DNA of 6,498 nt from a virus (Duplodnaviria > Heunggongvirae > Uroviricota > Caudoviricetes). The stretch lies in the IMG/VR virus record IMGVR_UViG_2579778894_000010; one strand, given 5' to 3'. Shown piece by piece: positions 3,828 through 6,498 of this stretch. The notes beneath the pieces were generated by a model. It was given only the letters and a program-made list of their open reading frames with translations, had not been told where the DNA came from and made no database searches. Both the position numbers and the translations under genes were made by a program. The first letter of the stretch is position 1, and the number at the start of each line of letters is the position of its first letter.

Positions 3828-4028
3828 TTATCCATTAGATTTTTCATAAAGCTCAGGTTTAAATGGCAACCGTCCGCAAGTTCTATATGCAGCTTCTGCT
3901 GCACGTCCTTTTGGAATTAACTGGCCCGGACGGTTTCGCCACTGATAAACGGCTTCAGTTGTTATGCCGAAAAAAGCAGCAACTTTCTCAATACTGCCGA
4001 AGTAGCTTTCGATATCGTCAGTTGTCAT
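3828..4028 (-). CDS. cro: Cro-type repressor (P22 Cro-like)
   Basis: 66 aa, divergent from the cI-like gene. HTH segment FGSIEKVAAFFGITTEAVYQWRN resembles P22 Cro as I recall it. Strong SD GGAGGG 5-10 nt upstream of ATG 4028. Confidence 0.8.
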   Translation of the reverse strand: MTTDDIESYFGSIEKVAAFFGITTEAVYQWRNRPGQLIPKGRAAEAAYRTCGRLPFKPELYEKSNG

Positions 4029-4125
4029 ACGCCCTCCAAACTAAGTTTTGTTAGATGCTAATTACAAATCTATCTTTGGTCAATAAAAACTAAGATTACT
4101 TAGCGATTAAAGAAATGGTGCTCCT
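4029..4125. promoter_or_regulatory. divergent immunity promoter/operator region (oR-like; pR toward cro, pRM toward cI)
   Basis: Two 14-bp dyad sites of form CTAA-N6-TTAG: 4041-4054 (CTAAGTTTTGTTAG) and 4090-4103 (CTAAGATTACTTAG). Minus-strand candidate pR: -35 TTGACC, 17-nt spacer, -10 TAGCAT, placed so the 4041-4054 site overlaps the transcript start. Confidence 0.6.
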
Positions 4126-4752
4126 ATGGAAACGGTTGGTCAGCGTATAAAAGCTCTGAGAAGAGTTACCAGAACGTCCCAGAAAGAATTGGGTAAATTT
4201 TGTGGAGTAAGCGACGTTGCTGTGGGGTACTGGGAGAAAGACATCAATACCCCTGGCGGGGAGGCACTTTCGAAATTAGCGAAGTTCTTCAATACGTCAA
4301 TAGATTACATTCTTTACGGTGCTGAGTTTGAAGGCAAACTCGTCACAAACATGCGCAGAGTTCCTGTAATATCGTGGGTTCAGGCTGGGCAGTTTACTGA
4401 GTGCAGGGCAGCAGAAGTGTTTAGTGAAGTGGACAAGTGGGTAGATACATCATTAAAGGTTGGTGATAACTCATTTGCATTAGAGGTTAAAGGTGACTCC
4501 ATGACTAACCCTAATGGCCTCCCAACAATACCAGAAGGCGCAACAGTGATTGTAGATCCAGATGCAGAACCTCGTCATGGAAAAATAGTCATCGCTCGAC
4601 TTGATGGAACAAACGAAGCTACAGTAAAAAAATTAGTCATCGATGGCCCTCAAAAGTTTTTAGTGCCATTAAATCCTCGGTATCCCAACATCCCTATCAA
4701 TGGTAATTGCCTTATCATTGGTGTAGTCAAAGGAGTTCAATACGAACTCTAA
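4126..4752 (+). CDS. cI: cI/C2-type prophage repressor (XRE HTH plus S24 LexA-like autopeptidase domain)
   Basis: 208 aa. N-terminal HTH (QKELGKFCGVSDVAVGYWEK); C-terminal S24 signatures: catalytic Ser in GDSM, Lys in EATVKKLV, and a cleavage-site-like AG; overall resembles P22 C2. Confidence 0.9.
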   Translation: METVGQRIKALRRVTRTSQKELGKFCGVSDVAVGYWEKDINTPGGEALSKLAKFFNTSIDYILYGAEFEGKLVTNMRRVPVISWVQAGQFTECRAAEVFSEVDKWVDTSLKVGDNSFALEVKGDSMTNPNGLPTIPEGATVIVDPDAEPRHGKIVIARLDGTNEATVKKLVIDGPQKFLVPLNPRYPNIPINGNCLIIGVVKGVQYEL

Positions 4753-4797: not shown

Positions 4798-4824
4798 GTT
4801 TTCTCTTGTCATGATAACTAAGTT
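4796..4824 (+). promoter_or_regulatory. candidate pL/oL-like element: operator copy overlapping a sigma70-like promoter
   Basis: AACTAAGTTAAGTTAGAT (4806-4823) matches the oR site AACTAAGTTTTGTTAGAT (4039-4056) at 16 of 18 positions. It sits inside -35 TTGTCA (4796-4801), 17-nt spacer, -10 TAGATT (4819-4824) on the plus strand. Confidence 0.4.
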
Positions 4825-4917
4825 AAGTTAGATTTTATATCAAAGATAACGAACAGGCAGGACGCCCACGAAGTAGCCGCCTGGGGCATATGAAGTCCAG
4901 GATGATTCGTTAGCAAC

Positions 4918-4940
4918 AAAAAAGCGCCCTACAGGACGCT
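4918..4940 (-). terminator. rho-independent terminator for the minus-strand orphan gene
   Basis: On the minus strand: AGCGUCC-UGUA-GGGCGCU stem-loop (7 bp, one G-U) followed by U6 (plus-strand A-run 4918-4923), about 40 nt after the stop at 4980. It is strand-specific: the same position is a C-A mismatch in plus-strand RNA. Confidence 0.5.
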
Positions 4941-4979
4941 TAGCTCTTTAACAATCTGGATATCCACAACAGTAGTAAT

Positions 4980-5471
4980 CTACAGATTGCCGTTAAGTTT
5001 TCTGGACAACTCCTCAATGGATGGAGGCGATACGTAATCCGGATTTTTATTCATCAGAAACTTATTTTCACAGTGGAGGCACCTGCTTTTATGAAAAAGC
5101 TCATCTTCGCTAACCGGGAATGGTTGAAGTATCGATACTATCTTTTGTCCAAAACATTTTGGGCAAAGATGCATGGTTATGCTGCCACCGTTCACGATTA
5201 CCTCCTTCGAGTATACAAAAGTACCCGACTCAAGTTGGTTAAGGATATAGCCTTCCGTCTGAGCCTCAAAGTTTTCGAATTCTGCAATTTTAGCTTTGAG
5301 AGAAGCATTTATTTCTTGATAAGAGCCCACCAGTTCAACGAGAGACACGCATTCGCGCTGAATAGACGCAAGCTTTGAGTTCAGCTCACCAATAGCCGCA
5401 TTTACTTCAGCTTGAGTTTTTGCCTCGTTCATTAGTTTTGCAATCTGGGCTGTTTCACGAATAGCCGTCAT
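4980..5471 (-). CDS. orphan coiled-coil / C4 zinc-ribbon protein (about 163 aa); candidate moron
   Basis: Predicted start ATG 5471..5469 (MTAIRETAQIAKLMNEAK...); the track ORF extends to 5759 but the extra N-terminal 96 codons look like non-coding read-through. N-terminal half is heptad-like and Ala/Glu/Lys-rich; C-terminal half has CPKC-x21-CLHC. By eye it is AT-rich and convergent with cI. Alternative GTG start at 5495. Confidence 0.6.
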   Translation of the reverse strand: MTAIRETAQIAKLMNEAKTQAEVNAAIGELNSKLASIQRECVSLVELVGSYQEINASLKAKIAEFENFEAQTEGYILNQLESGTFVYSKEVIVNGGSITMHLCPKCFGQKIVSILQPFPVSEDELFHKSRCLHCENKFLMNKNPDYVSPPSIEELSRKLNGNL

Positions 5472-5509
5472 TGCTGCCGTTAATTCAGCGATCACATTGA
5501 ATACTCTTA

Positions 5510-5555
5510 TTGTTGTTGGGGATATCCAGATTAACCGAATCCTTGTTGTTGGGGA
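5510..5555. repeat. two exact 13-bp direct repeats (TTGTTGTTGGGGA) spaced 33 bp, upstream of the orphan gene
   Basis: Copies at 5510-5522 and 5543-5555, lying 40-85 bp upstream of the predicted start at 5471. Confidence 0.6.
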
Positions 5556-5782
5556 ATAACCAGGTCCACCTCGCCTGATGTGGCTAAAAGCAGGCACATA
5601 ACAGCTAAGTATTTTCAACCAGAGAGAATCCTTAGCGTTGTGGTGAATGCGGCTCAGCGCACGCGGGTTAAGGTTGAGGCTGACAGTCGACCTTCTGTGG
5701 ATACCCACCCGCCTGGTGTGCAACCTTCGCCAGGCACCGGGAGGCACCCGGCACCACAACTTTATGCTGTGTGTAGTCCTGG

Positions 5783-5828
5783 CGGTACCAGTTTGTACCC
5801 TTGCTTCCGGCTGGTACCGTCCTTTTTT
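5783..5828 (+). terminator. terminator-like hairpin followed by a T-run (plus strand)
   Basis: Perfect 9-bp stem CGGTACCAG (5783-5791) / CTGGTACCG (5811-5819), 19-nt loop, then TCC TTTTTT (T-run 5823-5828). Confidence 0.45.
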
Positions 5829-5829
5829 G

Positions 5830-5916
5830 CAAAACAGAGAAGAGCATCACCGGACGACGGGCTCATAACCCAATCCATCCGGGCGGCTGCCACCGCAGGT
5901 GTTCTTCTCTGTTTTG
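5830..5916. repeat. 14-bp perfect inverted repeat enclosing a 59-bp GC-rich segment
   Basis: CAAAACAGAGAAGA (5830-5843) and TCTTCTCTGTTTTG (5903-5916) are exact reverse complements; the enclosed sequence contains further short stems such as CCGGG/CCCGG. Confidence 0.55.
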
Positions 5917-5965
5917 TGGAGAAACCAACCGACCTTGCAGGGTCGATATGATGAGGAGCAGCAAA

Positions 5966-6328
5966 ATGGCTAGCGAACGCAGTACTGATGTGCAGGCATT
6001 TATCGGGGAGCTGGACGGCGGCGTATTTGAAACCAAAATCGGCGCAGTTCTCAGTGAGGTCGCTTCCGGTGTGATGAACACGAAAACCAAAGGGAAGGTC
6101 TCACTCAATCTGGAAATCGAACCGTTTGATGAGAACCGTGTGAAAATCAAACACAAACTCTCATATGTTCGCCCAACTAACCGCGGGAAAATTTCCGAAG
6201 AAGACACCACCGAAACGCCGATGTATGTCAATCGCGGTGGTCGCCTGACTATTCTGCAGGAAGACCAGGGACAATTACTGACTCTTGCCGGTGAACCTGA
6301 CGGAAAACTCCGCGCAGCAGGTCGTTAA
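5966..6328 (+). CDS. hypothetical protein (120 aa) in the first-leftward-gene (N) position
   Basis: ATG 5966 preceded by SD GAGGAG (5953-5958) at a 7-nt spacer; the track ORF start at 5801 is an upstream extension through GC-rich non-coding sequence. No Arg-rich N-like motif and no family recognised. Confidence 0.65.
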   Translation: MASERSTDVQAFIGELDGGVFETKIGAVLSEVASGVMNTKTKGKVSLNLEIEPFDENRVKIKHKLSYVRPTNRGKISEEDTTETPMYVNRGGRLTILQEDQGQLLTLAGEPDGKLRAAGR

Positions 6329-6393: not shown

Positions 6394-6447
6394 ATGTCTC
6401 AGAACTTAGGGAAGGTGCGAATAAGCGGGGAAATACTTCTCGGCTGA
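6394..6447 (+). CDS. possible 17-codon small ORF (MSQNLGKVRISGEILLG)
   Basis: SD GAGGA (6383-6387) 6 nt before ATG 6394; followed by a 6-bp stem TCGGCT (6440-6445) / AGCCGA (6475-6480) and TTTTTT (6481-6486). Very short, so speculative. Confidence 0.2.
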   Translation: MSQNLGKVRISGEILLG

Positions 6448-6498
6448 CTCAGTCATTTCATTTCTTCATGTTTGAGCCGATTTTTTCTCCCGTAAATG

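Follow-up and report, generated by a model that had tools for sequence, protein, structure and literature searches.

In the prophage region analysed here a terminator-like hairpin stands directly upstream of the first leftward gene and no N-like antiterminator is evident, which raises the question of how RNA polymerases that start at the leftward promoter reach the early-left genes. The window, meaning the whole 6,498-nucleotide stretch of DNA that was analysed (IMG/VR record IMGVR_UViG_2579778894_000010), is the immunity and early region of a lambdoid prophage of the SfV/SfIV/PhiR49_1 type; over positions 5560-5965 it has 100% identity with Escherichia phage PhiR49_1 and 97-98% with SfIV and SfV. 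N-less phages of this kind are common in E. coli, Shigella and Salmonella. The features of the window are collected in Table 1.

Table 1. Features of the window on and around the PL transcript.
Feature	Position	Strand	Description and basis
cro	3828-4028	-	followed by ymfL, ymfM homologues, replication genes, rusA
cI	4126-4752	+	gene layout
PL	4806-4834	+	-35 TTGTCA 4806-4811, 17-nt spacer, -10 TAGATT 4829-4834; 9/12 matches (promoter scan)
cI-type operator CTAAGTTAAGTTAG	4818-4831		overlaps PL; 14-bp palindrome type
Element A, 64-nt leader RNA	4848-4911	+	begins ~6-8 nt past the predicted PL start
Intrinsic terminator of the antisense gene	4922-4941	-	AAGCGTCCTGTAGGGCGCTT followed by TTTTTT on the - strand (terminator scan)
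rrn-type boxA with spacer, GCUCUUUAACAAU	4943-4955	+	~105 nt into the PL transcript
Antisense "moron" gene, phrog_1244	4980-5471	-	convergent with PL transcription (ORF list, PHROG)
STnc100-like core, 124 nt	5637-5760	+	Rfam match, MFE fold, covariation
Single-stranded linker UUUAUGCUGUGUGUAGUCCU	5761-5780	+	UGCUGUGUGWAGUC conserved in ST64B and phiES15
Candidate intrinsic terminator	5781-5828	+	stem 5781-5793/5809-5821, 15-nt loop, C spacer, U6 5823-5828
yfdP leader hairpin	5830-5916	+	14-bp outer helix AACAGAGAAGAGCA/UGUUCUUCUCUGUU, immediately 3' of the terminator
First leftward gene, YfdP homologue, phrog_204	5966-6328	+	PhiR49_1 annotation

The path from PL to the first leftward gene

Since cI is encoded on the + strand and cro on the - strand, the direction called leftward in lambda corresponds to the + strand of the window. 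An earlier note on this DNA had suggested a leftward promoter that overlaps an operator, and the promoter scan indeed located the -35 and -10 hexamers of PL at a position where they overlap a CTAAGTTAAGTTAG operator. Operators of this type also occur at 4041-4054 and 4090-4103 in the cI-cro intergenic region, and the motif has eight matches against 0.96 expected. At the positions homologous to PL, more than 100 phages carry promoters of the TTGACA type with different operators.

As the note had stated, a polymerase that leaves PL crosses the convergent antisense gene and then the hairpin before it arrives at the first leftward gene. The PHROG match of the antisense gene covers residues 94-244 of a long open reading frame, so that the gene likely starts at the ATG at 5471-5469. 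The stem of its terminator contains a U.G pair on the - strand, which is a C.A mismatch on the + strand, indicating that it is built for the - strand. Just upstream of the start of the antisense gene lies a direct repeat, TTGTTGTTGGGGA(A)TAWCCAG, at 5511-5530 and 5543-5563. It is adjoined by a block (5566-5603) whose counterpart in phiES15 and e14 contributes to a minus-strand promoter for the antisense genes; the extended -10 of that promoter (TGgTATACT or TGgTATGCT) is lost in the window. In another part of the window, between 2465 and 2655, repeated CAAAATCTGAC-like units with repetitive QILT/QNLT translations are found inside the replication-protein gene and look like origin iterons within an O-like gene; a match to mir-5880 was spurious and caused by these repeats.

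According to the annotation of PhiR49_1, the genes downstream of cI encode YfdP, YfdQ, an HD hydrolase, EaE, YfdT and the integrase. The gene at 5966 belongs to no Pfam family, and its PHROG category is that of unknown function. It matches no antiterminator family in Pfam or PHROGs, in agreement with the note, which had seen no N-like protein, and an Arg-rich N-like protein was thus not found as the first PL gene. Likewise, the first PL genes of ZF40, YeP1, SPN3UB, e14 and phiES15 match no antiterminator family in these two collections.

The stretch between the hairpin and the gene is itself structured. The outer helix of the leader hairpin has undergone compensatory changes in ST64B (G-C to A-U) and in e14, indicating that 5830-5916 is a transcribed leader, and the hairpin is a possible site of cleavage by RNase III or of other processing. 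If an unseen promoter in 5829-5965, or just upstream of the STnc100-like core described below, were to drive yfdP, the hairpin would never be crossed by PL transcripts. The promoter searches were consensus scans, which miss weak or non-sigma-70 promoters, and within this scope no sigma-70-like promoter was found on the + strand of 5480-5965, neither between the hairpin and 5966, where the note had likewise seen none, nor directly upstream of the core. In several relatives a -10-like hexamer lies 6-10 nt upstream of the core, and a promoter directly 5' of the core is conceivable in the window; however, transcripts from there would still face the hairpin, and the covarying helix at 5830-5916 suggests that this stretch is transcribed as a leader. 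Furthermore, almost no activity was seen in e14, where a reporter for the region upstream of ymfH-xisE-intE showed an active start in gentamicin alone, and there in just one of two replicates (PMC12132413). An independent promoter of this sort is therefore highly improbable. The lack of a visible promoter in 5829-5965, the transcribed leader and the lack of an antiterminator protein together indicate that PL transcripts must cross ~1.1 kb of untranslated RNA and then the hairpin.

The hairpin as a predicted terminator

The arms of the hairpin, CGGTACCAG (5783-5791) and CTGGTACCG (5811-5819), pair as the note had described, and the TTTTTT that it had noted lies at 5823-5828, separated from the stem by a single unpaired C on the + strand. 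The stem extends further than the arms, to 13 bp including three G.U pairs, with a folding energy of -19.7 to -20.5 kcal/mol (ViennaRNA RNAfold). For the 76-nt hairpin region a z-score of -3.04 was obtained, and one of 200 dinucleotide shuffles was equally stable. In an RNAfold-based scan of the + strand downstream of PL this is by far the most stable hairpin with a U-run within the window, the sole other site being a weak one at 6413-6458 (-11 kcal/mol), and in PhiR49_1 all sense-strand sites that a simple terminator scan found from the hairpin to the integrase gene are weak. On the strand of the rightward operon the window contains no hairpin with a U-run that is as clean, only loose and irregular candidates.

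The element thus has the G+C-rich stable stem followed by a U-run on the transcribed strand that is expected of an intrinsic terminator, but its 15-nt loop is longer than the 3-8 nt that are typical. The simple scan admits loops of 3-8 nt only, which is why the hairpin is absent from its list. The position of a hairpin with a U-run has been kept in relatives although the stem sequences have changed: unrelated stems followed by U5-U7 are found at this place in ST64B (GUCGGCGUC...GACGCCGAC-CUUUUU), phiES15 (GCCCGC-UUUC-GGGCGGGC-CU7), 933W, L075, L079 and L234. Most relatives have U5 followed by AC in place of a longer U-run. The hairpin therefore looks like a Rho-independent terminator, a prediction that is made from sequence and folding. 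The first seven bases of the RfaH ops element are matched by GGCGGTA in the 5' arm; an ops site was rejected, since the match fails at later positions and is not conserved in ST64B or phiES15. A GGCGGTAYCAG motif similar to one in DicF had also raised the suspicion of a DicF-like sRNA, for which there is no Rfam DicF match.

The hairpin is also found outside the immediate relatives of the window. Many phages, among them mEp460, the cdtI phage and the Stx2c phages, have just 5780-5965 in common with the window, a segment that comprises the hairpin, the leader and the beginning of yfdP and is 97% identical in mEp460 and the Stx2c phages. The restriction of the similarity to 5780-5965 in many phages indicates that a module or recombination boundary lies at 5780, at the foot of the hairpin.

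One way past such a terminator is that it simply leaks, so that a fixed fraction of polymerases reads through and the early-left genes are expressed constitutively at a low level once cI is inactivated, with no antitermination involved. The long loop, the three G.U pairs and the C spacer in front of the U-run are not optimal for termination, the U-run is interrupted after U5 in most relatives, and the near-identical hairpin works behind different upstream modules. On the other hand, U6 behind a stem of about -20 kcal/mol normally makes a competent terminator, and related lineages place canonical tetraloop terminators with U7 at this position, before kil or other early genes. A leak would also leave the boxA and element A, which are described below, unexplained. 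We regard a merely leaky terminator as possible, though not probable.

An STnc100-like RNA that ends in the hairpin

The Rfam family STnc100 (RF02076) matches 5607-5830 over its entire length (model positions 1-206 of 206; E = 2.8e-6) with 40.3 bits, a score that is below the gathering score of 47. The closing helix, the last hairpin and the terminator are all aligned, 22 nt of the 3' motif are identical, and it is the hairpin at 5781-5828 that aligns as the terminator of the family. In the core, the closing helix is formed by GUUGUGGUG (5637-5645) and CACCACAAC (5752-5760) and encloses, in this order, a GAAU junction, a first hairpin, variable middle hairpins and a last hairpin. The latter (CCGGG-AGGCA-CCCGG) is invariant and abuts the closing helix, of which the four outer pairs covary among 13 relatives. 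Complements to the linker and to the terminator loop were searched within the window, and only 8-mers at chance level were found, with no convincing target. As the 3' end of a structured RNA that is conserved, the hairpin is not a mere obstacle, and termination at this site yields a product.

Cores of the type seen in the window (W-type) are also present in ST64B and 118970_sal3, in Cronobacter phage phiES15, where the core precedes kil, and in P1 and P1-like phages, where it lies in the Pban operon just before tciA. The core of P1 is unannotated (L005 2502-2625, corresponding to 70078-70201 of the record). It is situated in the ban operon under C1 control, right behind the antisense plp/upl genes, so that the order of promoter, antisense genes and core is that of the window, and its closing helix, GUUGCGGUG with CACCGCAAC, contains a compensatory change from U-A to C-G. 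It is followed by no terminator, which shows that core and terminator are separable. In e14 of E. coli K-12 the core lies within the annotated ORF ymfH, in front of xisE-intE. This ORF (L135 3076-3387) overlaps the core, the terminator hairpin and the conserved leader, and the ymfH "gene" may be an RNA region rather than an ORF.

A pattern scan of IMG/VR placed the W-type cores in a much larger family, of which they form one branch. Its B-type members have the consensus NNNN-GGUGAAUGCGCAGGCUGAUGCGC ... AAGCCGGAGAUCAGCACCGGCCACC-NNNN with a covarying closing helix, and those that were tested are not detected by Rfam. Their loops GCUGA and UCAGC are mutually complementary, which suggests a kissing-loop contact; the W-type cores, including that of the window, have no such complementarity between the first and the last loop. 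In one B-type core, L003 2855-2989, the first-hairpin loop is GGCUGA and the last-hairpin loop AGAUCAGCA, with a complementarity of 5 nt. By our own count, a canonical terminator follows within 100 nt of the core in about half of the ~49 distinct B-type members; in P1 and in some other members of the family the core runs directly into a gene with no terminator. In mEp460, the cdtI phage and the Stx2c phages the place of the W-type core before the near-identical hairpin is taken by a B-type core. The order in the Stx2c phages is cI stop codon, terminator, operator-flanked PL (TTGACA), the closing helix of the core ~10 nt further on, hairpin and yfdP.

Many B-type cores are preceded by UGCUCUUU, which was considered as a boxA and rejected, since it forms the 3' strand of the covarying closing helix of an upstream domain. 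This domain of ~70 nt precedes the B-type cores of L011, L016, L046, L054, L094, L105, L107 and L109; its closing helix is AAGAGCAC/GUGCUCUU, or AAGAUUAU/AUAAUCUU in L107. Within it lies a GGGUUCGAnUCCC that resembles a tRNA T-arm, genuine tRNA genes are frequent in the neighbourhood (P1, L011, L069), and the domain may be a processing signal that makes the 5' end of the core. On the - strand of mEp460 (L002 323-524) and of a Stx2c phage (L003 625-826), matches to C4 antisense RNA and isrK exceed the gathering score; they adjoin antirepressor genes and look like an immI module of the P1/P7 type.

The core could also control its own terminator, either by sensing in the manner of a riboswitch or by binding the polymerase, and would then form one regulatory unit with the hairpin. 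In many lineages the core is accompanied by a terminator, its junctions and loops are invariant, and both W-type and B-type cores are joined to the near-identical hairpin module, which suggests that the two types are functionally equivalent. In addition, the Stx2c core begins ~6-10 nt after the predicted PL start and is directly followed by the terminator, a layout like that of put. However, inspection of the folds revealed no conserved alternative pairing between core and hairpin that could serve as an antiterminator, P1 and several other members lack a terminator, and relatives of the RNA have been reported to be trans-acting sRNAs bound by Hfq. Control by the core is thus rather unlikely.

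Element A and boxA at the start of the PL transcript

Two further elements were found on the PL transcript far upstream of the hairpin. The first, element A, consists of the helices P1 (4848-4853/4906-4911) and P2 (4880-4884/4897-4901), an invariant core of 22 nt, GGCAGGACGCCCACGAAGTAGC (4856-4877), and an invariant AUGA (4902-4905). Among 68 distinct sequences the pairing is maintained in 93.9% of cells, with compensatory changes in 10 of the 11 pairs, and the covariation score is 0.741, with shuffles reaching 0.197 and slid controls no more than 0.164; the G.U pairs fit the + strand. The exact 22-mer is present in at least 120 IMG/VR contigs and in 92 stretches of species-representative Enterobacterales genomes, and it ranges over Escherichia, Citrobacter, Klebsiella, Yersinia, Serratia, Pectobacterium, Xenorhabdus and Photorhabdus. 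In more than 100 phages with varied operators and immunity types the element lies 20-35 nt past a strong repressor-controlled promoter, and a mosaic boundary is found at ~4848. A search with a model of element A found a single copy in each locus, always on the PL side.

Element A has no Rfam match, and no description of its sequence string was found in the literature searched, which included that on ymfH and on antiterminator RNAs, so that it is apparently an undescribed leader RNA. Several known functions were considered for it and rejected. The GGA motifs that might bind CsrA are not invariant, members of the ZF40 type having UAGAUGA instead; hammerhead and other ribozyme cores have the wrong motif order and no Rfam match; and the frame of a small ORF is not conserved between the window and ST64B.

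The second element is a boxA. GCUCUUUAACAAU is identical to 13 consecutive bases of the boxA-spacer ugcucuuuaacaauuua of the E. coli rrn operons (PMC2724277), and the PL transcript thus contains the rrn boxA consensus UGCUCUUUA together with its spacer. The exact boxA has one match in the window, where 0.13 are expected even with two mismatches. Among 110 element-A loci, 19 carry the boxA; in most of these, including 14 with an offset of 86-87 nt, it adjoins the terminator of the convergent moron and the sequences diverge straight after it. In the window, too, the only hairpin that adjoins boxA is the upstream one, the antisense-gene terminator, which is optimised for the opposite strand. Antitermination of the boxA type is established mainly against Rho and not against intrinsic terminators. 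By analogy, a role of the boxA in shielding the long untranslated transcript, which crosses an antisense gene, from Rho would fit.

For element A, a role as a processive antiterminator that acts in cis in the manner of put can be considered, such that the nascent RNA would bind the very elongation complex from which it emerges and only polymerases that started at PL would pass the hairpin and the terminators of convergent morons. This would fit its constant place after repressor-controlled promoters of many immunity types, its strong covariation with G.U pairs on the + strand, the single copy on the PL side and the lack of an N-like gene, and the invariance of the 22-nt core from Escherichia to Xenorhabdus would fit a contact with a conserved host machine. 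A sense-strand terminator candidate lies within 2.5 kb downstream in 56 of 85 element-A loci, about a third of the 85 having a strong one (dG <= -19, by our own count), and antisense terminators are present in 65 of the 85. However, the enrichment of sense terminators over these 85 loci is noisy, and many of the loci lack a strong one. A covariance model of put moreover revealed no relation to element A, the architecture of which is different. Finally, the Stx2c phages and mEp460 carry the near-identical hairpin before yfdP without element A, which therefore cannot be required for read-through; either the terminator leaks or the STnc100-like core matters. A put-like function of element A is accordingly doubtful. 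The broader proposal, that element A represents a second, unrelated class of nascent-RNA antiterminators in very many N-less Enterobacterales prophages including e14, which perhaps acts together with boxA and Nus factors and passes both STnc100-type and convergent-moron terminators, is unlikely as it stands.

A terminator-ended RNA as a probable gate to the early-left genes

Taking these findings together, we propose that the hairpin is the 3' end of an RNA of ~190-220 nt of the STnc100/PasD kind, which is placed in the PL operon of an N-less prophage of the SfV/e14 type. Polymerases that stop at 5823-5828 would release an RNA with a multi-helix body, the single-stranded linker and a terminator with its U-tail, the simplest reading of this product, by analogy to its relatives, being that it is sRNA-like. 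Those that read through would enter the structured leader and then the operon from yfdP to int, so that the terminator would act as a gate before the early-left genes. On the way to the gate, the boxA would protect the ~1.1 kb of untranslated RNA between PL and 5966 from Rho, and the hairpin itself would be passed either by a partial leak or with help from element A or the STnc100-like core on the same transcript. This model as a whole, in which the terminator of an STnc100-like RNA stands before the early-left genes, is probably correct, judging from the sequence comparisons. The sub-threshold Rfam score, the 15-nt loop, which is long for an efficient terminator, the conceivable promoter directly 5' of the core, the nearly silent e14 reporter, the restriction of established boxA antitermination mainly to Rho, and the core of P1, which has no terminator, speak against it.

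With respect to the earlier interpretation, the terminator-like hairpin, the operator-controlled PL and the lack of an N protein have all held up, but the STnc100-like RNA, element A and the boxA had been overlooked. These three elements lie on the path from PL, which makes a protein-independent RNA antitermination at the hairpin a reasonable hypothesis. In itself the hairpin is ordinary, a terminator that ends a prophage RNA of an already catalogued family. What matters is the setting, in which a structured RNA that ends in a terminator would gate the early genes on the xis/int side of an N-less phage. The finding that the STnc100 family is much wider than its Rfam model matters for the annotation of prophage sRNAs in pathogens. 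In E. coli K-12, e14 has PL and element A upstream of ymfJ, as well as the core and the hairpin, and lacks the boxA. The question of antitermination can therefore mostly be tested in standard strains.

Comparison with known systems

The closest relatives of the RNA are STnc100, which has been treated as a prophage sRNA of unknown function (PMC12370729), and PasD1 and PasD2 of EPEC prophages, reportedly abundant sRNAs that end in intrinsic terminators, are bound by Hfq as determined by RIL-seq and have been grouped structurally with STnc100 (bioRxiv 10.64898/2026.05.13.724894). The window's RNA shares with them a length of ~200 nt, the closing helix UGGUG...CACCA, the GAAU junction followed by the first hairpin and the location in a prophage, and with STnc100 also the identical 3' motif CACCGGGAGGCACCCGGCACCA and a terminal intrinsic terminator. 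By contrast, its middle hairpins differ from those of STnc100. The canonical copies belong to the late region and lie near the Q and lysis genes or, in Stx2 phages, 75 nt downstream of stx2B, whereas the copy of the window is located in the early-left region between PL and yfdP.

HK022, too, is an N-less lambdoid phage in which a conserved structured RNA is made right after PL and a terminator stands further along the operon, so that early transcription likewise has to pass terminators without the aid of a phage protein. Its put RNA, of which there is a cryo-EM structure, consists of two stem-loops with a triplex and binds the zinc-binding domain of the beta' subunit (PMC9378689). Element A is made up of a single closing helix, a junction strand of 27 nt that contains the invariant 22-nt core, and one hairpin, and it is related to put neither in sequence nor in structure. 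A put covariance model (R1), which was built from putL and putR of HK022 together with HK639, phiEt88, CobraSix, S9-5 and UPF_BP1, recovered putL with 95.2 bits and putR with 47.8 bits, but detected nothing at element A or at the core; its sole match in the window, at 1037-1101 of the - strand, had 5.7 bits (E 8.6). A homology between put and either element A or the core was therefore rejected: blastn was not significant, the shared strings ACGAAC and CAGGAUGA are coincidental, and CCAGG in element A is the 3' arm of P2, where only the adjacent AUGA is invariant. Element A shares with put the position immediately downstream of PL, but whereas HK022 has both putL and putR, element A has no second copy downstream of PR in the rightward operon.

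The boxA resembles the rrn boxA, which is bound by NusB/NusE, and the boxA of lambda nut, in that the exact GCUCUUUAACAAU lies in an untranslated leader. It differs from the N/nut system of lambda in that no combination of a boxB with an N protein is evident, the only hairpin beside it being the terminator of the antisense gene.

Lambda 6S RNA, which is made from pR' and ends at tR', and StxS are short phage transcripts whose terminator is overridden by an antiterminator. They belong to the late operon, where the Q protein overrides the terminator, whereas the RNA of the window lies in the early-left operon, for which no protein antiterminator is evident. As in these systems, a promoter-proximal RNA of ~200 nt would end at an intrinsic terminator that precedes an operon, and the RNA released there would possibly be an sRNA.
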